In this document: one piece after another, positions 41,585-54,989 of the stretch
Position numbering within the stretch: the first letter of the stretch is position 1
Layout: each line of letters starts with the position of its first letter
Assembly: GCA_946623875.1 (NCBI GenBank)
Contig: CAMORO010000004.1
Span: 2,997 to 66,996 of the forward strand
Reading direction: 5' to 3'
Origin: an uncultured Lachnospiraceae bacterium
GTDB lineage: Bacteria; Bacillota; Clostridia; Lachnospirales; Lachnospiraceae
DNA: 64,000 bases
Made by a program: the position numbers and the translations under genes
Notes under the pieces: model-generated
What the model was told of the DNA's origin: nothing
What the model saw: only the letters and a program-made list of their open reading frames with translations
Database searches by the model: none

Positions 41585-42670
41585 TCAGTAAATGATCCTG
41601 TTTCTTCCTTCCGCTTTACCCTGATAGAGCTTGGAGTCCGCATGCTCTATGGTCTTCTGGATGCCGATGCTGTCATCGAATTCCTCGAGACCGAAGGTCA
41701 TTGTTACGTAGAAGGTGAAATCCTTGAATTTGAAGGTTGTTTTCTCTATCTGGTATTTAAGCTTGCTGAGCTGTTCATAAGCATAATCGCCGTTGTTGTT
41801 CTCGAAGGCGAACAGGAATTCCTCGCCGCCCCATCTTGCTATCCGTCCTTTGTCCTTCATGAAGTCATTGAACATCTTGCCCAGCTCGACGAGAACATAA
41901 TCTCCGGCATCATGGCCGTATGTATCATTGATCCGTTTGAAGAAGTCGATATCACTGAGTGCGAGAGCAAGTGTTCCTTCGCTGTTGCTGTCCTTGATAT
42001 AGCGGTCAAGATGATCCATCATGCCTCGCCTGTTGGTCAACTGTGTAAGCGGATCCATGGTTGCAAGCTTCTCGAGCTTCTTGGCGTATTTAACGATCTT
42101 GTGCTCGCTGGATGCGAACTTAAGATAGTAGAAGTTCGCGATGGTAACGAAGGTAACAGACAGATACAGCGTATCGGTAAGCACGATGCTTATGTCCTGT
42201 GAGTGGCTGAATTCAACAACCTTATCGGCGATCGTGAGATATACCCATATGCCTACTATTGCAACCGATATAATAAAGGAAACAACATATTTGATGGCGG
42301 GGCTGTCATCCGTCTTATAACAGAAAAGCAGTATAAGGGAATAAAGAGAAAACTGGAAGCCCGCCGTAGGACCAAGGGCAAACGAATACGCTATCATGGT
42401 AAACAGCATTGCCGCCGAGTATACAAATACGGTTCCCGAAGCATTGCTCCAATACGTCATCCACAGAATGAGCAGATAAGTAATGCTGAAAGCTATCGAC
42501 CAACGGTACAGGGCCGAATGCAATGATGTAGCAAAGAATAATGTCAGTATAAAATTAAAGAAAAAGTTAACAAGGCAGAGCATACGAATAAGTACCGAGA
42601 GATCACTTAACTGGTTCTCACCCGCCACGTCCTTGAACAGTAATTCTTTTACTTTGTGAAATACGGCCAT
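41585..42670 (-). CDS. Membrane-bound diguanylate cyclase (GGDEF domain, GGEEF active site)
   Basis: About 6 N-terminal TM segments, then DPLTQLTNRRG ... RWGGEEFLF. No RxxD I-site seen just upstream of GGEEF. Confidence 0.88.
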   Translation of the reverse strand: MAVFHKVKELLFKDVAGENQLSDLSVLIRMLCLVNFFFNFILTLFFATSLHSALYRWSIAFSITYLLILWMTYWSNASGTVFVYSAAMLFTMIAYSFALGPTAGFQFSLYSLILLFCYKTDDSPAIKYVVSFIISVAIVGIWVYLTIADKVVEFSHSQDISIVLTDTLYLSVTFVTIANFYYLKFASSEHKIVKYAKKLEKLATMDPLTQLTNRRGMMDHLDRYIKDSNSEGTLALALSDIDFFKRINDTYGHDAGDYVLVELGKMFNDFMKDKGRIARWGGEEFLFAFENNNGDYAYEQLSKLKYQIEKTTFKFKDFTFYVTMTFGLEEFDDSIGIQKTIEHADSKLYQGKAEGRNRIIY

Positions 42671-44015: not shown

Positions 44016-45764
44016 ATGGATGATAAGAATAGAGTCATGATGCTTGGCAATGAGGCTATTGCCCGCGGAGCATATGAGGCCGGAGTGAAGGTTTCGGCAG
44101 CATATCCCGGAACACCAAGCACCGAGATAAGTGAAAATATAGTTAAATATAAGGATGAGCTGTATTGTGAATGGTCTCCCAATGAGAAGGTGGCGACCGA
44201 GGTGGCGATAGGAGCTTCCATGGCAGGAGTCCGTTCGCTTGTATCAATGAAGCATGTCGGGGTAAATGTGGCGGCAGATCCGCTGTATACTGTTTCTTAC
44301 ACGGGTATATCCGGCGGAATGGTGCTTGTAGCGGCAGACGATCCCGGAATGTACAGCTCGCAGAATGAACAGGATACAAGGATGGTAGCGCGTGCTGCTC
44401 AGGTACCTGTGATCGAACCCTCCGATTCGCAGGAGGCAAAGGATTTCATTAAGTTCGCTTATGATCTGAGTGAAAAGTATGATACACCGGTGATCTTAAG
44501 GACCACAACAAGGCTGTCACATTCGCAGGGTCTGGTTACCCTCGGGGACAGGCTTAATATAGAAGATAAACCGTACGAAAGAAATATAGCAAAGTACGTA
44601 ATGATGCCCGGCAATGCCAAACTCCGTCATCTGGTCGTAGAGGAGAGGGAGAAAAGGCTTATAGAGGATTCGTGTGATTTCCCCATAAACAGGGTTGAAA
44701 TGAACGATACATCCATAGGCTTTATAACGAGCGGAATACCTTATACGTATGTTAAGGAAGTCCTTCCCAATGCCTCTGTGCTTAAGCTGGGGCTGGTCAA
44801 TCCCCTTCCGCGCAAGCTGATCGAGGATTTTGCGTCCAAAGTGGATACTCTGTATATTTTTGAAGAGCTGGATCCTCTTATTGAGACACAGGTGAGGTCG
44901 TGGGGCATTAAGGCGATCGGTAAGGAGATATTTACGATACAGGGCGAGTACAGCGCCAATATGTTAAGGAAGGCAGTACTGCATGAGGATATTAAGATCA
45001 AGGAAGCTGCTGCTGTTCCCGGACGTCCGCCCATCCTCTGCCCGGGCTGCCCCCACAGGAGTGCTTTTACGGTGCTTAACAAGCTCAAGATACATGCGGC
45101 GGGTGATATAGGATGCTATACGCTCGGAGCGGTTCCGCCTCTTGGTGTTGTTGACACCACCATTTGCATGGGATCGAGTATTTCCACCCTGCATGGTATG
45201 GAAAAGGCGAAGGGTAAGGATTATATCAAGAACTGGGTTGCGGTTATAGGGGATTCCACCTTTATGCATACCGGTGTCAATTCGCTTATCAACATGGTAT
45301 ATAATCAGGGTACCGGAACAGTTATGATCCTCGACAATTCCACAACCGGAATGACCGGACATCAGGATCATGCGGCAACGGGAAAGACACTTCAGGGTGA
45401 AGAGGTTCCCGCTGTAAGCATTCCGAAGCTGTGTGAGGCTATCGGGGTCAGGAATGTATATGAAATCAACGTGTTTGATACGGAGGGCCTTGAGAAGCTC
45501 ATAAAGCAGGAGCTTGCCAGGGATGAAGTGTCTGTCATCATAACAAAGACGCCGTGTGTACTGCTTAACAGGACACCGGTTACGCATACCTGTCAGGTGG
45601 ATGCGGATGCATGTAAGAAATGCGGAATGTGCATGAAACCGGGATGCCCGGCAGTTACGAAGCTTGACAGCGGTGTTACAAGGATAGATACGACGATGTG
45701 CAACGGATGCGGTCTTTGTAAGTCGCAGTGTAAATTCGGTGCGATAAAGGATGTTCCCTGCTGA
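44016..45764 (+). CDS. iorA: Indolepyruvate:ferredoxin oxidoreductase alpha subunit
   Basis: N-terminus GNEAIARGAYEAGV, a TPP-binding region (GDSTFMHTG), and a C-terminal 2x[4Fe-4S] pair (CKKCGMCMKPGC, CNGCGLCKSQC). Confidence 0.88.
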   Translation: MDDKNRVMMLGNEAIARGAYEAGVKVSAAYPGTPSTEISENIVKYKDELYCEWSPNEKVATEVAIGASMAGVRSLVSMKHVGVNVAADPLYTVSYTGISGGMVLVAADDPGMYSSQNEQDTRMVARAAQVPVIEPSDSQEAKDFIKFAYDLSEKYDTPVILRTTTRLSHSQGLVTLGDRLNIEDKPYERNIAKYVMMPGNAKLRHLVVEEREKRLIEDSCDFPINRVEMNDTSIGFITSGIPYTYVKEVLPNASVLKLGLVNPLPRKLIEDFASKVDTLYIFEELDPLIETQVRSWGIKAIGKEIFTIQGEYSANMLRKAVLHEDIKIKEAAAVPGRPPILCPGCPHRSAFTVLNKLKIHAAGDIGCYTLGAVPPLGVVDTTICMGSSISTLHGMEKAKGKDYIKNWVAVIGDSTFMHTGVNSLINMVYNQGTGTVMILDNSTTGMTGHQDHAATGKTLQGEEVPAVSIPKLCEAIGVRNVYEINVFDTEGLEKLIKQELARDEVSVIITKTPCVLLNRTPVTHTCQVDADACKKCGMCMKPGCPAVTKLDSGVTRIDTTMCNGCGLCKSQCKFGAIKDVPC

Positions 45765-45842
45765 TGTCCATGGGATTATCTTTTGTGTAAGTGAATTCTT
45801 ACCACAGAAAGCATAAGTATAAATGATGTAGGAGATTAACAA

Positions 45843-46412
45843 GTGAAAACCAGGAATATAATGATAGTAGGTGTCGGCGGACAGGGAACACTCCTTACGA
45901 GCCGTATCCTTGGAGGGATCATGCTTGGCGCCGGTTTTGATGTCAAGATGTCGGAAGTTCACGGAATGGCTCAACGCGGAGGCTCTGTCGTGACTTATGT
46001 CAGATACGGAGAGAGTGTTGCCGAGCCCATCGTGGAAGAAGGGCAGGCTGACGTCCTTATCGCCTTTGAGCAGCTTGAGGCCAAAAGATATGCGCATTTC
46101 CTTAAAAAGGACGGAGTACTTATAGTAAATACACAGCGCATAGATCCGATGCCTGTAGTCATAGGGCAGGCCGAATATCCCGAAGGCATAGTTGAAAGTC
46201 TTAAGAAGGAATACAGGGTTATTGATGTTGATGCGATGAGTGAAGCGCTTAAGCTCGGCAATCCAAGGGTATTTAATGTCATAGTCCTCGGAGTTGCCGC
46301 AAAGCACATGGATTTTGATAAAGAACAGTGGTTTGATGTGATTGAAAAGACTGTCAAGCCCAAATTCGTTGATCTTAACAAGCGGGCTTTCGAGACAGGA
46401 TACAATCTCTGA
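45843..46412 (+). CDS. iorB: Indolepyruvate oxidoreductase beta subunit
   Basis: IVGVGGQGTLLTSRILG and HGMAQRGGSV. GTG start 7 nt after AGGAG. Confidence 0.85.
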   Translation: MKTRNIMIVGVGGQGTLLTSRILGGIMLGAGFDVKMSEVHGMAQRGGSVVTYVRYGESVAEPIVEEGQADVLIAFEQLEAKRYAHFLKKDGVLIVNTQRIDPMPVVIGQAEYPEGIVESLKKEYRVIDVDAMSEALKLGNPRVFNVIVLGVAAKHMDFDKEQWFDVIEKTVKPKFVDLNKRAFETGYNL

Positions 46413-47490
46413 TAACATTTATCAGACGGTCGTTCATTTCCGGTGACATGAAGCACAGCCGGAAAAACCTGTTGTCAAGGAAAGGGAAGGTGCAGCAGTT
46501 TCTTATCATCATTTTACTGCGTATGCAGACATCGAACAGTATGTCGGCATTTACGCTTTCGTCTTCTGTCTTGACCAATACGAAGTTGGCTGAGGGCTCA
46601 TATACCTTGAGCCCTTTTATATTGGAAAGAGCATCGGTCACACGGGCTCTTTCGGTGCTTATAAGCTCTTTTGTATGTGCAATGTAATCTTCATCGGTGA
46701 ACATCAGCTTGCCGGCCTCCTCGGCCAGTGAGTTGATCGTCCACGGATTCTGCCTAGAGTTGATCGCCTTGATAAGATCCTTGTTGCCCGTGATGCCGTA
46801 ACCGAGGCGCAGACCGGGTGCGGCGAAGAATTTGGAGATCCCGCGAAGGATAATGATGTTGTTGTAGTATCTGGTCAGGGGAATACAGTTAACTTCGTCA
46901 TAGTTACTGGTGAATTCGATATAGGTTTCGTCCACCATTACAAATATATCGTTCTGTTTGCAGACATCAAGGATATTTCTCATGGTCTGTCTGGTGATAC
47001 AGGTGGAAGTCGGGTTGTTCGGATTGCATAGGATAAGAAGATCGATGCTTTCATTAAGCTGTGTTTCGAGCTTATCGTAATCAAGAGCGAATCCATCCTT
47101 TTCTCTTAGCGGGAAATAAAGGGAAGTGCCGCCTCCGAGCGAAACCTCGCGTTCGTATTCGGAGTATGTAGGTCCGATTATCAGGGCTTTTTTCGGGTGC
47201 TCAAGCTGTATGAACAGGGAGATGAGTTCGGTTGAACCGTTTCCGACAACAATATGTTCGGGCTCAGTACCGCAGTATCCTGCAATAACTTTTCGAAGAC
47301 CGAGGTATTCTCTGTCCGGGTAGGCGGTTATCACATCAAGATGCTCTGCAAGTGTTTCCCTTAGCCTGGGCGACAGTCCGAGAGGATTTACATTTGCCGA
47401 GAAGCTTACGATTTCGTTTCTGTTTATTCCGTATACCTGTTCGATCTTTTCGAGATCGCTGCCGTGAAAATGGTCTGAATGCTGTATCAT
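46375..47490 (-). CDS. Class I/II PLP aminotransferase (HisC/CobD-like)
   Basis: NPNNPTS, the PLP-Lys context GISKFFAAPGLRLGYG, and YPD. The 3' end overlaps convergent iorB by 38 nt. Confidence 0.8.
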   Translation of the reverse strand: MIQHSDHFHGSDLEKIEQVYGINRNEIVSFSANVNPLGLSPRLRETLAEHLDVITAYPDREYLGLRKVIAGYCGTEPEHIVVGNGSTELISLFIQLEHPKKALIIGPTYSEYEREVSLGGGTSLYFPLREKDGFALDYDKLETQLNESIDLLILCNPNNPTSTCITRQTMRNILDVCKQNDIFVMVDETYIEFTSNYDEVNCIPLTRYYNNIIILRGISKFFAAPGLRLGYGITGNKDLIKAINSRQNPWTINSLAEEAGKLMFTDEDYIAHTKELISTERARVTDALSNIKGLKVYEPSANFVLVKTEDESVNADILFDVCIRSKMMIRNCCTFPFLDNRFFRLCFMSPEMNDRLINVIRDCILSRKPAC

Positions 47491-47561: not shown

Positions 47562-50500
47562 GTGGTGAGGAACTTGCATGAGATAGTAGATAAACTTGTT
47601 AACGGGTTTTTCGATTATGACAACGGAAAGCTCTCTTTTTCTGTGTCAAGAATTGAAGAGTCGCTTCCCGCAGGTGAGCTGTATGAAGGTTCCTTTACCA
47701 TTTTCAGCAGGGACTCGCTTCCTGTTTCCGGTAAGGTGTATACATCCAATATGAGGCTTGTCTGCCGTATCGACAGCTTTAATGCCAGCAGGGTGGATGT
47801 TGCATTTATGTTTGCAACAACCGGTCTTGAACCCGGTGATCTTATAAAGGGAGATGTCCAGATAGTATCAAACAAGGGTGAATACTACATTCCGTTTGCT
47901 TTTTCGATCGTAAGAAGCATTGTGAAGAATTCTCTGGGCAACGTAAAAAACCTGTTCCACTTTACCAATCAGGCACAGACGAGCTGGGATGAGGCGGTTT
48001 CTTTGTTCTATGCAAGGGATTTCGTTCAGGTCTTTGAGGGAAACGAACAGCAGAATCTTATCAAATACCGCGGATTTTCCAACAGGATCGGAAATGAGGA
48101 GAGTGTTGATGATTTCCTTATAGCCATAAACAAGAAGCAGCCCGTAATGTATTCCGTCGATAAGACATATCATGAACTTACCAATATTACCGAAACACTC
48201 AGATGTGAGCTGCCGATAAGGAAGTCGACATGGGGCTATGTGAATGTTAAAGCCACATCGGACAGCAGTTTTCTTCGTGTTGAAAAAGATACACTCACAT
48301 CAAATGATTTTCTCGGAAATGTACACCGTTTTGTCTTTTTTATTGAAGAAGACAGGCTTCATGAGGGCAGGAATTTCGGAAGGCTCATTTTCGAAAGCTC
48401 TCATCAGAAGCTGACCGTGACCATAGTTGCCTCCAAACGTATGAGTAATGAAGGCCTCAGGATAGAAAGACGTGAGAAACGTAACCTTACGATGCGTCTG
48501 ATGCGCTGTTATATTGCCTTCAGGACAAAGCATATAAGCGTTAATACATGGATAAGGGATTCGCTTAAAATAGTGGAACGTCTCAATGTTCTGGACGACA
48601 AGAATCCCGAATCAAGGCTTTTTCAGGCTCAGCTTCTGCTGGTTTCACAAAGATACAACGAAGCCAAGTGGATACTGGATCATGTTGCCAATGATCTTAA
48701 GATAATGAGGAAGGAACCGACCATATACAGCTACTATCTTTATCTGACAACTCTGTATATGCGGGATGATGCATATATAAATGAAAAGGCCGGGGAAGTA
48801 GAGGAACTGTATAAGGAAAACAGGGACGATTACAGGATATTGTGGACCCTTATGTATCTTGATGAGGATCTGTCAAACAATCATGTGCGTAAGATCGAAC
48901 TCATAGATGAACAGTATAAAAGGGGATGCCGCAGTCCCATCATATATGTTGAAGCCTACCAGTACTATGTGAATAATCCGGCCACGCTTACACGGCTGGA
49001 TGAAATGGAGATACAGATCCTTTACTGGGCAGCGAAGAACGGACTCATGAACAACGAACTGTGCAAGCAGATACTGTATATATGTGCGCGCACCAGGGAG
49101 TTTTCTCCAGCGCTGCTTAAGCTTCTTATAAAGATACATAAGATAAATGAAGATCCGGATGTGGTCAGTGCTATATGTTCCATGCTTATCAAGGCAAACA
49201 AGACCGACAGTGAGTATTTCGAATGGTACAGCAGGGGAGTTGAGCTTGAGCTGCGTATCACCAAGCTGTACGAGTATTATATGCTGTCCGTACCGATGGA
49301 TCATGAGGAACTTCTGCCCAAATCGGTGATCATGTATTTCGGGTTCAGAAATCATATGGATTATGTGCATCTTGCTTATCTGTATACCAACATGCTCAAG
49401 CACAGGATGGATATCCAGAAGCTGTGTGAGGAATATGAGCCTACCATGAAGAGCTTCGCCGAAGAACAGATCGCGGGAGGAAAGATAAACAGGGATCTTG
49501 CTTATCTTTATGAGCATGTCTGTCCGCCGCAGGAGGTTAAGCCCGATATGGTCAACGCGTTTGTGCGGCTGCTGTTCTCGGTGGATGTGGTTATTAAGGA
49601 TCCGGGGATCAAAAGGATATGTGTGATCCAGGAGGAGTTTGAGGGCGAAGGGATCTATCAGGTTGAGAACGGCCATGCATATCCCGAAGTGTACAGCAGC
49701 AGGTATATGGTGTTTGGCGAGGACGCAGACGGAAGGCGGACTGTGATCTCTCCCGAAAACATATCAAGACTTATGGATGAAACTCAGTATATTCCGTATA
49801 TCAAGAACTACGTAACAGACAATCCGGGCTTCAATCTGTATCTGTGCAACGGAAGAAGACATTATATAACTGTCGATGACAATAATGTCGAGTACTGCAG
49901 GAATCTGGTCGATTCCGTGGATATCAAGGAAAGTTTTAAGCGGGATGTCCGGATGGAACTTTTAAGGTATTACTATGATAACAATGCCATAAGCACGCTG
50001 GACGAGTTCCTTATAAATATAGATCCGTCCATACTGAGTGTAAAGGACAGGGCGGAGCTTCTCGGATACTTTGTTATGAGGGGCATGTATGAGGCTGCTT
50101 ATGAGATAGTCACTGTTTACGGCGCTGAAAAGGTTCCCGTTAAGACACTTGTCAGAATATGTTCGCATATGATAGGCAAGAAAGAGGAGCTTTATGACGT
50201 TATGCTCGTCAAGGTGGCTTATCATGCTTTCATTAAGGGCAAGTATGATGTGCTGACACTGCAGTATCTGGTCGACCACTTTAACGGCCTGACCAAGGAA
50301 CTGAGAAATCTGTGGAAAGCAGCCAGGGAGTTTGACGTTGATTATTTCCAGTTGATGGAGAAGCTGATCATCCAGATGCTGCTGACAAGGACAACAATAG
50401 GTGAAAAAGAGGAACTTTTTGAGGAGTATTTAAGGCAGGGACCCAATACAAGGGTCGAGCTTGCGTACCTTTCGTACAATGCCTACGATTACTTTGTAAA

Positions 50501-51128
50501 GGACAGGATGCTTGACGGCAGGATATTTGAACACATACTCAAGAATTACAGGAGGGGAGAAGAGTTAAATGATGCCTGCAAGCTGGCGATCCTCAAGCAT
50601 TATGCCGAGGAACGTGATGAGGAGAACGAAGAACTTAAGGAAATGATAGTTACTTTTCTTAAAGAGTATACACAGAGAAATATCTATTTTGAGTTTTTCA
50701 AAAGGTACACGAAGCTTTTACCGGGGCTTGCTGAGTATAATGATAAGACGATAATCGAATATAAGACCAATCCGGCTGCAAGAGTCAGATTACATTATAT
50801 TATAGAGAGCAACGAAATGGATGATAATTATCATACCGATGAAATGAGAAATATGTACGGTGGTATATTCTCACGGGAATTTGTGCTGTTTTTCGGTGAG
50901 AATCTCCAATACTATATTTCAGAGGAGCTTGATGGCAGGGAATCCTTTACATTCTCGGATTCGATATCGGTGTCGGATACCGTTTCGCAGATGGGAAGTT
51001 CCAGATATGCCCTGTTAAATGATATGGTAGTGTCCAAAACGCTTCAGGATGATGATACACTGATGCAGCTGATGGAGGAATATGTCACTGATGAGTGTTT
51101 TGCGGAAAGTGTGTTCACCTGTATTTAG
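47562..51128 (+). CDS. Uncharacterised 1188-aa cytoplasmic protein (beta-rich N-terminal modules, about 750 aa helical-repeat-like core, beta-rich C-terminal module)
   Basis: A long uninterrupted ORF with genome-typical codon usage. No signal peptide or TM and no catalytic motif that I recognise. The start codon is uncertain (GTG 47562 with a weak SD). Confidence 0.8.
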   Translation: MVRNLHEIVDKLVNGFFDYDNGKLSFSVSRIEESLPAGELYEGSFTIFSRDSLPVSGKVYTSNMRLVCRIDSFNASRVDVAFMFATTGLEPGDLIKGDVQIVSNKGEYYIPFAFSIVRSIVKNSLGNVKNLFHFTNQAQTSWDEAVSLFYARDFVQVFEGNEQQNLIKYRGFSNRIGNEESVDDFLIAINKKQPVMYSVDKTYHELTNITETLRCELPIRKSTWGYVNVKATSDSSFLRVEKDTLTSNDFLGNVHRFVFFIEEDRLHEGRNFGRLIFESSHQKLTVTIVASKRMSNEGLRIERREKRNLTMRLMRCYIAFRTKHISVNTWIRDSLKIVERLNVLDDKNPESRLFQAQLLLVSQRYNEAKWILDHVANDLKIMRKEPTIYSYYLYLTTLYMRDDAYINEKAGEVEELYKENRDDYRILWTLMYLDEDLSNNHVRKIELIDEQYKRGCRSPIIYVEAYQYYVNNPATLTRLDEMEIQILYWAAKNGLMNNELCKQILYICARTREFSPALLKLLIKIHKINEDPDVVSAICSMLIKANKTDSEYFEWYSRGVELELRITKLYEYYMLSVPMDHEELLPKSVIMYFGFRNHMDYVHLAYLYTNMLKHRMDIQKLCEEYEPTMKSFAEEQIAGGKINRDLAYLYEHVCPPQEVKPDMVNAFVRLLFSVDVVIKDPGIKRICVIQEEFEGEGIYQVENGHAYPEVYSSRYMVFGEDADGRRTVISPENISRLMDETQYIPYIKNYVTDNPGFNLYLCNGRRHYITVDDNNVEYCRNLVDSVDIKESFKRDVRMELLRYYYDNNAISTLDEFLINIDPSILSVKDRAELLGYFVMRGMYEAAYEIVTVYGAEKVPVKTLVRICSHMIGKKEELYDVMLVKVAYHAFIKGKYDVLTLQYLVDHFNGLTKELRNLWKAAREFDVDYFQLMEKLIIQMLLTRTTIGEKEELFEEYLRQGPNTRVELAYLSYNAYDYFVKDRMLDGRIFEHILKNYRRGEELNDACKLAILKHYAEERDEENEELKEMIVTFLKEYTQRNIYFEFFKRYTKLLPGLAEYNDKTIIEYKTNPAARVRLHYIIESNEMDDNYHTDEMRNMYGGIFSREFVLFFGENLQYYISEELDGRESFTFSDSISVSDTVSQMGSSRYALLNDMVVSKTLQDDDTLMQLMEEYVTDECFAESVFTCI

Positions 51129-51150: not shown

Positions 51151-52479
51151 ATGGATAACAGTACACGGTATGTTGTGGGTTACGATCTGAATGACCTGCT
51201 CACACAGATCAGCTATTTTGAACTGAATAATGATGATCCGAAGACACTTGTTTCAGACGGTGAAAACGAGAGGCTGGGCATCCCGACGGTGTTATGCAAG
51301 AGGAAGAAGGTCAATCAATGGAGCTTTGGGACTGAAGCTACAAGGCTTATCATGAATGATGAGGGAGCCGAGGTTAACAAGCTCCTGACACTTGCGCTTC
51401 GCTCGGGAAGCATAACTATAGATGGTGAGGAATTCAACGGGATAGATCTTCTCATACTGTTTATGAGGAAATCCCTTGATCTGTTGTCGGTATATGTGGC
51501 AGTGGATCAGATTGAGTCACTTGTTATTTCCGTTCAAAAGCTCGATCGTGAAATGCTGGCGGTTCTTGAGAGAGTGGCTGCCGCAATACCGGTGGAACGG
51601 GCAAAGATACTTTTCTTAAGCTACAGTGAGAGCGTATATTATTATATGATCCATCAGCAGAGTGAGCTCTGGGATCCTGAATGCGTTGTATTTGACCATG
51701 ACGGAAGGAATATAATGTCATACCATATGAGGCTGAACCACAGGACGACGCCGGTAGTGGGCATGATCGACGAACAATTGTTCAGCAATTATCCGGTTCC
51801 AGAGAAAAAGGTGACTTATGAAGATGAGGACTCCGGTGGCGATACAGGCGGTAAGGCTGATGCCGAATATGAGGAACAGGTGGAGGTTTCCGATAAAAGG
51901 CTGCATGATATGATGCATGATTTCCTTATGTCAAGGCCGATCCGTTCGGTATATCTGCTGGGAGCAGGGTTTGACGGTGAATGGTGCAAAAAGACTATAG
52001 GCTTTCTGTGTGTCGGAAGACGCGTGTTTCAGGGAAGGAATATGTATTCGAAGGGCGCCTGTTACTTCGGCATGGACAGGCTTATACCGACAAAGCTTAA
52101 CGAGGATTATCTGTTCCTTGGTAAGGACAAGCTTCAGTTTAACCTCGGGATCCTGATGGACAGAGGCGCCAAAGAGGAATATATAGCACTTGCGGATGGC
52201 GGTGAGAACTGGTTTGATATCGGTACCGAGGTGGAATTCATACTTGCGGGGGGCAGTAAGGTCGATCTGATTGTTACACCCCTTGACGGTAAAGCCGTAA
52301 GAACGGTATCGATCGGACTTGACGGTCTTCCGGGCAGGCCGCCCAAGACTACCAGACTTAAGATGAATGTGGGCTTTCAGTCGGGCAGTAAGGTCAAGGT
52401 TGTGATAGAGGATCTTGGATTTGGTGAGATCTTTCCTGCCACGGGTATGAGATGGGAACAGGAGACTGAGATAGAGTAA
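51151..52479 (+). CDS. Hsp70/actin-fold homologue with degenerate nucleotide-binding loops and an Hsp70 SBD-beta-like tail
   Basis: VVGYDLNDLLTQISY aligns with the DnaK IGIDLGTTNS motif. IPTVL and FGTEA follow. ECVVFDHDGRNIMSY aligns with DLGGGTFD, and VYLLGAGFDGEW with LVGGSTRIP. The C-terminal LPGRPPKTTRLKMNVGFQSGSKVKVVIEDLGFGE aligns with the PRG.PQIEVTFDID.NG motif. RBS GCGGAGGA upstream. Confidence 0.65.
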   Translation: MDNSTRYVVGYDLNDLLTQISYFELNNDDPKTLVSDGENERLGIPTVLCKRKKVNQWSFGTEATRLIMNDEGAEVNKLLTLALRSGSITIDGEEFNGIDLLILFMRKSLDLLSVYVAVDQIESLVISVQKLDREMLAVLERVAAAIPVERAKILFLSYSESVYYYMIHQQSELWDPECVVFDHDGRNIMSYHMRLNHRTTPVVGMIDEQLFSNYPVPEKKVTYEDEDSGGDTGGKADAEYEEQVEVSDKRLHDMMHDFLMSRPIRSVYLLGAGFDGEWCKKTIGFLCVGRRVFQGRNMYSKGACYFGMDRLIPTKLNEDYLFLGKDKLQFNLGILMDRGAKEEYIALADGGENWFDIGTEVEFILAGGSKVDLIVTPLDGKAVRTVSIGLDGLPGRPPKTTRLKMNVGFQSGSKVKVVIEDLGFGEIFPATGMRWEQETEIE

Positions 52480-52494
52480 AGGGAACATACGAAT

Positions 52495-53337
52495 ATGTCC
52501 AATCTTTTATTGTGCCATGGTAAGATGGCGGACAAACCATATAATGTTACCGGGCTTTCCGTAAATGTTTATTCCGCTGAGGAACTGTGCTATGTTCTTG
52601 CACAGAATGCACATACGCTTGACAGGGATTTCATGGTAGAGTCTCTGTGCAGCTTTATCGGCGAACAGCTCGGGCTTAAGGAGCTTGCCGCAAAGCTTCG
52701 GGAAATCATCGAAATTGACGGCAGTCTTACTGATTTTGTTACAGCCATATTGACGGAGGTTGCATACTGCGATCAGGATGAAATAAGAAATGTAAAACAG
52801 ATACTTATTGACAGTTCCGGGTTGAGCCCCGCAAGAAAGCACAAGAGCCGGGGAGACAATCTTCTTAAGGCAAGGCGTTATGCGAGGGCGCTGGACGAGT
52901 ACAGGGGAACACTTGACCGGATAGATCCGGATGCGGAACCGGTGTTATATGCGTCGGTACTGCACAATACGGGTACGGCTTATGCCAGGCTTCTGACTTA
53001 TGAAAAAGCCGCGGAATGCTATCTTGAGGCTTACAGACTCAGTATGGATGATGATACGTTGAAGCTGTATCTTGTCTGCTGCCGCATATATATGGATGAT
53101 GACGAATACAAACGTATGCTGATAAGATGCGGTTATCCTCAGGATATCATAAATGAGGCCGAGCAGATCGTGGCTAAAAGGACAGAATACAGGGATCCGC
53201 AGAATTCATATGTAAAGGAGCTTGAGGAGCTCAAGGCTCTTAAAAAAGAGGGAAGGATAAGCAGTTACTATATAGCTGTCGATCAGACCATAGACTCATG
53301 GAAGAATGACTACAGGATGGAGATGATCCTTCATTAG
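52495..53337 (+). CDS. Uncharacterised 280-aa protein with a TPR-like helical pair
   Basis: GDNLLKARRYARALDEYRGTL ... LHNTGTAYARLLTYEKAAECYLEAYRL resembles two TPR units. Tightly coupled within the operon. Confidence 0.6.
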   Translation: MSNLLLCHGKMADKPYNVTGLSVNVYSAEELCYVLAQNAHTLDRDFMVESLCSFIGEQLGLKELAAKLREIIEIDGSLTDFVTAILTEVAYCDQDEIRNVKQILIDSSGLSPARKHKSRGDNLLKARRYARALDEYRGTLDRIDPDAEPVLYASVLHNTGTAYARLLTYEKAAECYLEAYRLSMDDDTLKLYLVCCRIYMDDDEYKRMLIRCGYPQDIINEAEQIVAKRTEYRDPQNSYVKELEELKALKKEGRISSYYIAVDQTIDSWKNDYRMEMILH

Positions 53338-53349
53338 GAGGAGATGCCG

Positions 53350-54582
53350 ATGAGGTTATTTGACTTTATAAAGGAAAAGCTCGGTTTTGACGATGATGAT
53401 GAGGATGATGATCTTGACTTTGGCGCGGGAATGACCTTTGATGAGGGAGATGACGATGATGCCGAAGAGATCCGTGAGAAGCTGAAGAGGACAGGTATTA
53501 AGCTTGCCGACATCAATATCCTTGATTACCGTGAAAGAGAGCTCTACGTCAGGGATAAGTGTGAGATGATGAAGGCGGCGGCCGATGATCTTAAGGGCCA
53601 GCGTCACGAATATGAAAGGGTCACCCAGCAGCTTGCCGATATTGATGAGGTCTGCGCTCTGTCACTGACTCAGTTTTCCGAACTGGTCAGACTAGCCAAG
53701 CGTATAGAGAAGATTGAGGAAGATGAGGAGAAGTATGAACGTCCGCTCACCAAGATAACAGAAGCCCAATATCGTGATATAGAGCGGCGGGAGAAGGAAA
53801 TACCGGATGTTATAAAGAAGATAAAGGCTGAAGAAGACCATCAGATGACAATAAAGCGGGATCTTAACCTGCTCGAAGGAGAGAAGGGTGCTCTGGCTTA
53901 TCAGCGCAGAGAGGACAGACACCGGGCTGCAAATGCCAAGGCATTTGCCTTTGTGGCTACACTCGTATCCGTGCTGGCCGCTGCGTTACTGTTTATCCTG
54001 CAGATGACACTTAACTTTGATGTGCGTATAGGGTATTATGTGGTGCTTGCCTTTTTCTGTCTTGCACTTACGGGGGTGAGCGTTACATTTAAGAATTCGC
54101 AGGATTCGCAGGTGAAGACGGAGAAGAAGATCAATAAAGCGATAACGCTGCAGAACAGCGTCAAGATAAAATATGTCAATACGACAAATCTCATTGATTT
54201 CTACTATACAAAGTACAATATCAACAATTCCTATGAGCTTAACTATATGTGGGAGAAATACCTTGAAGAGAAGGCTGCCAGGCATCATTCCGAAGAGGTT
54301 GCCGAGAAAATAGAGAAAGCAAGGAAAGAACTGATAAACGAACTGAGGAAATTCAGGCTTAACGATCCCTCGATGTTCGTATACAGAACAGAGCTTCTGA
54401 CTGATGAAGATGTAATGCAGGATGTACGCCGTAAGCTCATTATACAGAGAAAAAAGCTTAAGAAAGGCATGGATTTCAACAATTACAGTATGGATAATTC
54501 AAAGGAAGAGATCGAGGCACTGGTCAGGGAGTATCCGAAGTTTGGTAACGAGATACTGGCAATAGTGAGTCAGTATCAGTAA
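53350..54582 (+). CDS. Uncharacterised coiled-coil membrane protein (poly-acidic N-terminus, 2-TM hairpin)
   Basis: DDDDEDDDLDF..DEGDDDDAEE near the N-terminus. Heptad-like Lys/Glu-rich stretches. TM segments FAFVATLVSVLAAALLFIL and YYVVLAFFCLALTGVSV. ATG 53350 is better spaced from AGGAGGAG than the listed 53344. Confidence 0.7.
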   Translation: MRLFDFIKEKLGFDDDDEDDDLDFGAGMTFDEGDDDDAEEIREKLKRTGIKLADINILDYRERELYVRDKCEMMKAAADDLKGQRHEYERVTQQLADIDEVCALSLTQFSELVRLAKRIEKIEEDEEKYERPLTKITEAQYRDIERREKEIPDVIKKIKAEEDHQMTIKRDLNLLEGEKGALAYQRREDRHRAANAKAFAFVATLVSVLAAALLFILQMTLNFDVRIGYYVVLAFFCLALTGVSVTFKNSQDSQVKTEKKINKAITLQNSVKIKYVNTTNLIDFYYTKYNINNSYELNYMWEKYLEEKAARHHSEEVAEKIEKARKELINELRKFRLNDPSMFVYRTELLTDEDVMQDVRRKLIIQRKKLKKGMDFNNYSMDNSKEEIEALVREYPKFGNEILAIVSQYQ

Positions 54583-54635: not shown

Positions 54636-54989
54636 TCAACTGTCGGATATCCTCTGTTCGAAATCGTCGAGCATTTTGGATACCCGGGGAGATATAGAAA
54701 CAAACTCGCACCCGTAGCGGTAGCGGTTATCATCGATCGCCTGTGAGCGGATGATCCTTATATCGGTGATGATCTGCGGAAGCTCGCGATCCAGTTCGAT
54801 ATTTGAGATAAATATACAGCCTATGGGAAGGACGGCATCCGATATAAATCCCAGTCCTTTGGCCGAAATGTCAGTGACTTCGATAGGTGCCGATATGTCC
54901 AGCAGTGTATTTGAGCTTTCCGTATATAAGTCTGACACCGAAAGCTTTATATTGATCGGTATTCTTTTTTCTTTGCGTTTTTCGTGCAT
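54636..54989 (-). CDS. Single-domain PilZ c-di-GMP receptor
   Basis: RxxxR (RKEKR) and DxSxxG (DISAKGLG) motifs at the expected spacing. 117 aa. Confidence 0.8.
   Translation of the reverse strand: MHEKRKEKRIPINIKLSVSDLYTESSNTLLDISAPIEVTDISAKGLGFISDAVLPIGCIFISNIELDRELPQIITDIRIIRSQAIDDNRYRYGCEFVSISPRVSKMLDDFEQRISDS

Follow-up and report, generated by a model that had tools for sequence, protein, structure and literature searches.

A DUF5716 protein of Lachnospiraceae as a probable lidless Hsp70 homologue with degenerate phosphate loops, encoded in a conserved four-gene operon

Can a bacterium encode an Hsp70 that has given up the loops with which this chaperone holds its nucleotide, and if so, with which partners would such a protein work? 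The question is raised by a stretch of 64,000 nucleotides (nt) from an uncultured Lachnospiraceae bacterium (GenBank assembly GCA_946623875.1, contig CAMORO010000004.1, positions 2,997 to 66,996 of the forward strand), which we call the window and whose coordinates are used throughout. An open reading frame (ORF) on its + strand, at 51151..52479, had been described in a first-pass annotation, made from the letters alone, as an Hsp70-fold protein whose ATP-binding loops are all degenerate. This ORF, here called g2, encodes 442 amino acids (aa) from an ATG start, with the Shine-Dalgarno sequence GGAGGA 6 nt upstream, and is the second in a run of four + strand genes, g1 to g4. The ORF and the four strings quoted from it are all present: VVGYDLNDLLTQ in the phosphate-1 region (aa 8-19), FDHDGRNI (aa 181-188), YLLGAGFDGEW (aa 268-278), and LPGRPPKTTRLKMNVGFQSGSKVKVVIEDLGFGE (aa 393-426), which had been taken as the signature of the beta-sandwich of an Hsp70 substrate-binding domain (SBD-beta). 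The analysis reported here indicates that g2 is very probably a strongly diverged Hsp70 homologue, composed of a trimmed nucleotide-binding domain (NBD), a linker and an SBD-beta, in which the lid is missing and the catalytic motifs are degenerate.

At the sequence level the Hsp70 signal of g2 is weak, and its family is so far catalogued only as a domain of unknown function. Residues 124-440 match Pfam DUF5716_C (PF18980) with 311.4 bits against a cut-off of 34.7 (expectation value, E, 6e-93), the first ~123-130 aa match nothing in Pfam, and no NCBIfam model recognises the protein. The g2 and g1 proteins are clear members of DUF5716 and DUF5717, respectively, and NCBI names their relatives 'DUF5716 family protein' and 'DUF5717 family protein'. 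Both are uncharacterised placeholder families, and the Pfam DUF5716 model covers just aa 124-440 of g2. The Pfam HSP70 model (PF00012) gave nothing with g2 even at E <= 1, and neither the single sequence (phmmer) nor a profile of 42 sequences (hmmsearch) found any chain, and so any Hsp70, in the PDB. Aligned to a single DnaK sequence with hhalign, g2 matched over the SBD segment only (E 0.16). The literature library that was searched had nothing relevant on DUF5716 and DUF5717, and on atypical or lidless bacterial Hsp70s it returned eukaryotic or DnaK work only.

At the fold level the signal is strong. The AlphaFold2 (AF2) model of g2, built from 42 homologues, has a predicted local distance difference test score (pLDDT) of 78.4 and a predicted TM-score of 0.65. 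A Foldseek search of the PDB with this model gave 291 matches at E <= 1e-3, of which the best 50 are all two-domain Hsp70s with both NBD and SBD-beta (prob 1.00, E 2e-16 to 1.6e-10), at sequence identities of 9-15%. These best 50 include DnaK in several states, the DnaK proteins of Geobacillus, Mycoplasma and M. tuberculosis, BiP, Hsc70(1-554), mortalin, Ssb, Sse1/Hsp110 and Ssz1; the Ssz1 entries matched include PDB 6sr6 (chain 6sr6_C, with bound pseudo-substrate), 5mb9 and 7x3k. NBD-only entries are absent from the best 50, so the C-terminal beta-domain of g2 apparently adds to the match score. A structure prediction had been proposed beforehand as a check on the first-pass annotation, and the fold that it returned is that of Hsp70 and no other.

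These matches bear on the first alternative, that g2 is an actin-like (ASKHA) cytoskeletal or polymerising protein comparable to FtsA, MreB or PilM, with a C-terminal beta-domain unrelated to SBD-beta. The ASKHA core of g2 and its weak Hsp70 signal in sequence would suit such a protein, and the membrane-anchored product of g4, with acidic-hydrophobic motifs described below, recalls the way in which FtsA works with the FtsZ tail. However, no FtsA, MreB, ParM, PilM or sugar kinase stands among the best 50 matches, all of them two-domain Hsp70s, and the profile alignment with DnaK runs collinearly through the linker and SBD-beta motifs that are specific to Hsp70. We regard this alternative as improbable.

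That profile alignment was made between 306 non-identical DUF5716 members, which share 26-96% identity with the window protein, and 70 DnaK sequences, taken from DnaK genes on viral contigs; the E. coli DnaK(1-605) reference sequence differs from that of PDB 2kho at two positions only. In local mode hhalign returned one collinear alignment, of DUF5716 1-437 with DnaK 1-511 (P 0.011), which passes from NBD through linker to SBD-beta, pairs the motifs as the first-pass annotation had paired them, and stops where the lid of DnaK begins. A P of 0.011 is modest, and weak taken alone. As controls, the three partner proteins gave P values of 0.11, 0.62 and 0.71 against the same DnaK profile. In global mode (-glob) the DUF5716 and DnaK profiles gave no meaningful alignment (8 columns, P 0.62). 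The order of motifs common to g2 and DnaK is GxDL..., ..PT/S.., xxD..., LxGG/xG, xxGAA/C, LLL/FL-D, LDG..P and xDxxxGx. Together with the Foldseek matches, this bears out the earlier claim that the Hsp70 fold and the order of its markers are kept.

The linker and the C-terminal domain are the parts in which the likeness is easiest to follow. The interdomain linker with the first SBD strand occupies aa 316-333 (52096..52149, + strand) and reads YLFLGKDKLQFNLG, paired by hhalign with DnaK VLLLDVTPLSLG; F322, L323, G324, D326, K327, L328, N331 and G333 are highly conserved. It is followed by an SBD-beta-like sandwich of eight strands (DSSP of the model) at aa 334-442 (52150..52476, + strand), where hhalign pairs TPLDGK with VLQGER, LDGLPGRP with LDGINPAP and EDLGFGE with KDKNSGK of DnaK, and where D421, G423 and G425 are nearly invariant. 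The likeness to SBD-beta first noticed in a single string of this domain is thus recovered by the two-domain Foldseek matches and by an alignment that runs through the SBD motifs. The absence of a helical lid and of an EEVD-type tail, also proposed at the outset, holds as well: g2 ends at the equivalent of DnaK ~511 and so has no lid, its C-terminus is not conserved and so offers no EEVD tail, and the model has no C-terminal helices. The position of the natural g2-g3 fusions described below suggested that g3 might be the detached lid of a split Hsp70; this idea was rejected, as g3 showed no lid similarity to DnaK in hhalign (P 0.11) and aligned to SBD-beta instead. One family member from an ENA metagenome, P0038 (470 aa), lies near the clade of the window protein over the NBD and is much more divergent from about the linker on (TPLDGK becomes QRPDSR). 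This pattern could reflect a recombinant or chimeric assembly; alternatively, P0038 may be a paralogue whose SBD differs.

What has become of the nucleotide site? The equivalent of phosphate-1 is GYDLNDLLT at aa 10-18 (51178..51204, + strand), facing GIDLGTTNS of DnaK (hhalign pairs DnaK 8, 10 and 11 with g2 12, 14 and 15). The Asp is kept and Asn-Asp-x stands in place of Gly-Thr-Thr, so that the window protein reads DLNDL. Among the 306 members, position 12 is Asp in 280 and Glu in 19, position 14 is Asn in 185 and Gly in 48, and position 15 is Asp in 218; D-L-N-D is the commonest form, D-x-G occurs in 40, and the canonical D-x-G-[ST]-[ST] in a single member. The equivalent of phosphate-2 is FDHDGRNIM at aa 181-189 (51691..51717, + strand; DnaK YDLGGGTFD, with DnaK 194 paired to g2 182). 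Here too the Asp is kept (D182 in 234/306, Glu in another 35) and the Gly-Gly-Gly-Thr loop is gone: the window protein reads DHDGRN, G185 is found in 148/306 and D-x-G-G in none of the 306. We found no subclade with canonical phosphate-loop motifs, as an ancestral active form might have, among these members down to 26% identity. The adenosine motif has fared differently. Its equivalent LLGAGFD, aa 269-275 (51955..51975, + strand; DnaK LVGGQTR), opens the most conserved stretch of the protein, and its glycines persist, with G271 (DnaK G341) in 306/306 and G273 in 244/306; further along the same stretch, G302 (DnaK G373) is likewise kept in 306/306. The claim that all ATP loops are degenerate therefore stands for phosphate-1 and phosphate-2, and is slightly overstated in that the equivalents of D8 and D194, a conserved Glu or Gln close to the position of E171, and the adenosine glycines are retained.

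Other parts of the canonical NBD have no counterpart in g2. In the hhalign mapping, 86 DnaK residues are unmatched, namely 78-98 (subdomain IB) and ~54 scattered through 220-331, which is most of subdomain IIB. Subdomain IIB of DnaK provides a large share of the adenosine-binding cleft and the contact site for GrpE on the NBD. In its place g2 has a variable acidic insert and the start of one long helix, aa 212-248 (51784..51894, + strand), a region with a mean top-residue frequency of 0.18; the insert itself lies at aa ~218-232, with pLDDT below 50 at 222-232. The length of this insert differs between lineages, from none in most clades to ~25 aa in the window protein and ~70 aa more in P0030. 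The catalytic Lys70 of DnaK maps to position 76 by hhalign or 77 by motif reading, and both columns are variable (Lys 79, Gln 51, Asn 46, His 42 in one; Asp 97, Ser 49, Gly 48 in the other). For E171, hhalign points to position 156, which is Gln in 235/306 and Leu in the window protein, and motif reading to E160, which is Glu in 289/306. The losses of the lid, of most of IB and IIB, of the phosphate loops and of the catalytic Lys argue that g2 most likely works without the canonical ATP/J-protein/GrpE cycle, a reading of the sequences that we hold with some confidence; loss of ATP binding and of ATPase activity would go with it. Given that acidic residues and the glycines of the adenosine motif are still in place, we infer, rather than observe, that g2 is non-catalytic.

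Conservation within g2 is highest in two stretches. The mean top-residue frequency is 0.72 over aa 266-305, the C-terminal segment of subdomain IIA, which ends in SKGAC (DnaK AIGAA), 0.64 over the linker (aa 316-333), and 0.49 over the whole NBD. Such high conservation of the linker and of the IIA surface would be expected where domains or partners touch each other, rather than where a nucleotide is bound. Also conserved, between aa 278 and 304 (51982-52062), are W278 and two cysteines, C287 (290/306) and C304 (265/306), and g3 has two cysteines of its own, C7 and C32 (52513-52515 and 52588-52590), which do not vary among 21 sequences. As the carriers are strict anaerobes, such cysteines might point to a site for a metal or for redox chemistry; we recognised no canonical pattern of metal binding around them.

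Is g2 simply a gene in decay? Compared with its relative in locus L067, which is 96% identical, g2 has 23.5 non-synonymous and 72.5 synonymous differences, a ratio of non-synonymous to synonymous rates (dN/dS) of 0.075; for g1, g3 and g4 the same comparison gives 0.038, 0.059 and 0.039. This ratio and the intact orthologues rule out a decaying pseudogene, and the degenerate loops are a conserved state rather than a sign of decay. Alignment of the orthologues, which had been proposed as a second check, found the phosphate loops degenerate as such across the 306 members. L067, the closest relative, comes from a rumen metagenome-assembled genome (MAG), Lachnospiraceae bacterium Tb.RUG.133, and its four module proteins are 95-98% identical to those of the window. 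The family is large, with at least 1411 DUF5716 homologues in a database clustered at 90% and 1594 clusters at 50% identity in an exhaustive search. All named carriers of the module are Lachnospiraceae or unclassified Clostridia/Bacillota MAGs, and the genera include Butyrivibrio, Kineothrix, Galacturonibacter, Konateibacter, Anaerobium and Acetatifactor.

With which genes does g2 travel? The first-pass annotation had placed it in an operon, and the four genes form a tight run on the + strand, g1 at 47562-51128, g2 at 51151-52479, g3 at 52495-53337 and g4 at 53344-54582, with gaps of 22, 15 and 6 nt between them. The same order was kept in every one of the 75 loci (4 metagenomic and 71 from species-representative genomes) that had enough flank, down to ~30% identity, with g1 always directly upstream of g2; all absences of a module gene in these loci fall at contig ends. 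In loci L001-L003 there is no spacer between g1 and g2, which share 4 nt. In the window, a divergently oriented aminotransferase gene flanks the run on one side and a convergent PilZ gene on the other. A promoter and terminator scan of the locus gave counts at or below the shuffle expectation and was uninformative; the sole terminator-like site on the + strand downstream of g4, at 54655-54673, lies within the convergent PilZ gene. Neither an HPD (J-domain) signature nor a Walker A (P-loop) motif is found in g1-g4, and no DnaJ or GrpE Pfam match in g1-g4 or in eight neighbouring ORFs, a result that comes without a search aimed at a GrpE-like partner. It is possible that g2 uses the housekeeping DnaJ and GrpE of the cell.

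The composition of this locus allowed a further alternative to be weighed, that the four genes make up a mobile system for conflict or defence, of Hsp70/TPR type, in which g2 acts as sensor or chaperone. Hsp70-like and tetratricopeptide repeat (TPR) proteins co-occur in some predicted NTP-dependent conflict systems, and the best of the weak PADLOC matches of g4 is to a generic '2TM effector' model (E 0.0016). However, PADLOC found nothing for g1-g3, PHROG nothing for g1, g2 and g4 and one weak match for g3 (E 0.0045), and there is no recognisable effector enzyme. The surroundings are housekeeping genes (aminotransferase, iorAB, purA/purB) that are syntenic across clades at 45% identity, dN/dS is very low and the GC content is ordinary. 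A defence role is in our opinion highly improbable.

The closest tie of g2 is to g3. Natural fusions, always of g2 followed by g3 and 685-765 aa long, occur in six independent 50% clusters; one of these has 1109 member sequences on many contigs, and another is RefSeq WP_026504008.1 from the cultured Butyrivibrio sp. NC3005. In the window g2 and g3 share one reading frame, and 15 nt separate the stop of g2 from the ATG of g3 (52477-52497), so that loss of one stop codon would join both ORFs, and such a single loss may have been the origin of the fusions in Butyrivibrio and other clades. By the Rosetta-stone argument these fusions point to a complex of g2 and g3, which we consider likely.

The g3 product (52495..53337, + strand) is a soluble TPR protein of 280 aa, with three TPRs at aa ~106-222 (nt 52810-53160) between conserved helical N- and C-terminal flanks and a C-terminus that is not conserved. 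Its Pfam matches, TPR_2 and TPR_12, both fall under the curated cut-offs; profile searches of the PDB gave consensus TPR proteins (2e-17) and, more weakly, TOM70, Sti1/Hop, FKBP51, SGTA and CHIP. When g3 was compared with the TPR1 clamp of Hop, K8 and N43 matched K117 (69/71) and N158 (71/71), N12 faced D121 (Asp in 69/71), and K73 and R77 could not be aligned.

The other two partners are a presumed scaffold and a membrane anchor. The product of g1 (47562..51128, + strand) is a soluble DUF5717 protein of 1188 aa (Pfam DUF5717_N, E 6e-290; DUF5717, E 9e-102). Its AF2 model (pLDDT 82.8) has Ig-like sandwiches at aa 24-117 and 197-292, a beta-domain at 673-736, and a long TPR-like alpha-solenoid at aa ~297-1060. 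Foldseek matched the N-terminus with ciliary central-pair proteins and other Ig-type domains, on which basis these modelled domains may be read as ASH/Ig-like, and the solenoid with the scaffolds Naa15, Ski3, IFT-A, Ctr9 and OGT; no enzyme was among the g1 matches. Chains of the ciliary central pair were matched by g2 (HSP70 7n6g_6K and 7sqc_Z0) as well as by g1 (7sqc, 7som, 9ijj), most likely a coincidence of common folds, the Hsp70 fold and the Ig-type sandwich, and not a sign of kinship.

The g4 product (53344..54582, + strand) has 412 aa and, by hydropathy, a transmembrane hairpin at aa ~195-251 (nt 53926-54096) between long, helical, charged regions, namely a coiled-coil N-half, assigned to the cytoplasm, and a helical C-half. 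No relatives were found in Pfam or the PDB, and the homologue search returned solely unnamed Lachnospiraceae proteins. Both of its extreme ends are conserved. The N-terminal motif FDFIKEKLGF plus an acidic run (53356-53424) has the consensus phi-D-F-I-x-E-K-L-G-F followed by poly-Asp/Glu and often then by L-D-F; LGF with the acidic run was seen in 97 of 166 sequences, probably an underestimate owing to miscalled start codons. The C-terminal tail IVSQYQ/E-COOH (54562-54579) has the consensus phi-phi-x-Q/E-Y-E-COOH, with a Y-[EDQ] end in 111/166. Conservation at the very termini suggests that they are recognised as peptides, the candidates being MRLFDFIKEKLGFDDDD at the N-terminus and EILAIVSQYE at the C-terminus. 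This acidic-hydrophobic pattern is loosely like that of FtsZ C-terminal peptides and EEVD tails.

On these grounds we propose, with a slight preference, that g2 is a nucleotide-independent (or non-canonical) Hsp70-derived clamp or adaptor in a membrane-tethered scaffold complex of g1-g4. The idea that g2 serves as an adaptor had been put forward from its sequence; it gains indirect support from the conservation of the partners of g2 and from the natural g2-g3 fusions. g2 would be a permanent peptide clamp or adaptor, nucleotide-independent or at most nucleotide-stabilised, which would sit in a stoichiometric complex of four proteins and bind the TPR protein g3, and g4, through its coiled-coil hairpin, would hold the g2-g3 pair together with the 140-kDa g1 scaffold at the membrane, on the cytoplasmic side. 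The gene order suggests a physical complex of all four proteins, and the g4 hairpin suggests the membrane tethering. In such a complex, the SBD-beta cleft of g2 could hold a segment of a partner as a pseudo-substrate, as Ssz1 does with the N-terminus of Zuo1. The candidate ligands would be the N-terminal motif of g4, hydrophobic and basic in character, for this cleft and its acidic tail for the TPR groove of g3. Drawn by analogy, this pseudo-substrate or g4-peptide model is tentative. The full picture, a membrane-tethered Lachnospiraceae complex of ~270 kDa (one copy each) in which a nucleotide-independent DUF5716 clamp and its TPR partners recognise both terminal peptides of g4, is more speculative still. 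Bacteria would then have an equivalent both of the Hsp70-TPR/EEVD principle and of a structural Hsp70 such as Ssz1.

Several observations weigh against this proposal. The coordinating aspartates for Mg and phosphate (D12 and D182), Glu160 or Gln156, and the glycines of the adenosine motif are all retained, which would be unexpected in a wholly obsolete pocket; these residues may have a purely structural role. The mapping of DnaK residues onto g2 is derived from hhalign and from motif reading, and around E171 these two differ by four residues. As a carboxylate-clamp TPR protein of the EEVD type g3 was rejected, since it matches at two of five clamp positions, and the tail motif of g4 is present in just about two thirds of the sequences.

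The retained pocket leads to the third alternative, that g2 has remained an active and regulated ATPase chaperone, which holds Mg-ATP on the remaining carboxylates and adenosine glycines, g1 or g3 supplying the missing functions and the linker gating the cleft. The conservation of D12, D182, E160/Q156, G271 and G273 would be expected of such an enzyme, as would the fact that conservation in g2 is highest in two parts that mediate allostery in DnaK, the linker (L/F-L-G-x-D-K-L) and region IIA; D-x-G is kept in phosphate-1 by 40 of the 306 members, and other ASKHA proteins tolerate divergent loops. However, not one of the 306 has the Gly loop of phosphate-2, the catalytic Lys is unconserved at either candidate column, most of IIB has no counterpart in the hhalign mapping, and the operon encodes no HPD. 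We consider an active ATPase possible, and rather doubtful.

How does the proposed clamp compare with known systems? With DnaK and the canonical Hsp70s (PF00012), g2 has in common the two-domain architecture and topology, an actin-like NBD, a hydrophobic linker and an SBD-beta. Unlike them, and at 10-15% sequence identity, it lacks a Pfam HSP70 match, the Gly/Thr loops of phosphate-1 and -2, Lys70, about 86 residues of IB and IIB, the lid and the C-terminal tail; it is restricted to Lachnospiraceae and is always encoded with a DUF5717, a TPR and a membrane protein, in an operon that has no HPD.

The best functional analogy, with no claim of membership, is Ssz1/HSPA14 of the eukaryotic ribosome-associated complex (RAC), like g2 a lidless Hsp70 paralogue. 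Ssz1/HSPA14 is a stable structural subunit whose truncated, lidless SBD cleft holds a segment of its obligate partner Zuo1 and for which ATP hydrolysis is dispensable. The eukaryotic Ssz1 keeps canonical nucleotide-binding loops, binds ATP and works with a J-protein on the ribosome, whereas g2 has degenerate loops, TPR/solenoid and membrane partners, and no evident link to the ribosome.

The eukaryotic Hsp70-TPR pairs (Hop/Sti1, CHIP, SGTA, TOM70) resemble g2-g3 in that an Hsp70 fold is coupled, here by gene order and fusion, to a TPR protein of three repeats. Those pairs rely on the EEVD tail of Hsp70, whereas g2 has no EEVD-like tail and the conserved acidic tail of the module sits on g4. 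Given D121 at the position of N12 and no alignable equivalents of K73 and R77, a carboxylate clamp is not demonstrated in g3. Any tail that is bound would belong to the membrane protein, the reverse of what is found in eukaryotes.

To our knowledge, the characterised bacterial Hsp70 paralogues (DnaK, HscA, HscC) are all ATP-driven machines, and descriptions of structural, non-catalytic Hsp70s and of Hsp70-TPR/EEVD partnerships have to date come from eukaryotes alone. We know of no previous description in bacteria of an Hsp70 derivative that, throughout its family, has no lid and degenerate phosphate loops and is hard-wired to TPR/solenoid partners and a membrane anchor. If the proposal is correct, an Hsp70 scaffold would have been repurposed as a passive clamp that lacks lid, exchange-factor surface and catalytic loops but still has its linker and peptide-binding sandwich. 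The proposal would, in addition, offer a first clue to the function of DUF5716, DUF5717 and two partner families without a name, all of them widespread in the Lachnospiraceae, a major bacterial group of gut and rumen. The proposal predicts that g2 has no ATPase activity, forms a complex with g3, and that the terminal peptides of g4 are bound.

Several features of the neighbourhood deserve mention. The PilZ gene (54636-54989, - strand), which encodes a single-domain protein and lies convergent directly after g4, is also present in L001-L003, the 45% identical clade, and is not in L004. PilZ is a family of cyclic di-GMP receptors, and a GGDEF diguanylate cyclase is encoded 5 kb upstream of the module (41585-42670, - strand); a link of the module to cyclic di-GMP is possible. 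Long ORFs antisense to well-supported genes, among them one of 484 aa opposite iorA/iorB (44964-46418, - strand) and one of 185 aa opposite g2 (51931-52488, - strand), were taken to be non-coding artefacts of codon usage, in view of the positive GC skew of the + strand. Finally, every 2-kb bin from 1 to 64000 shows this positive GC skew, its cumulative curve rises monotonically, and nearly all long genes lie on the + strand, consistent with the window being a leading-strand segment of a Bacillota chromosome.

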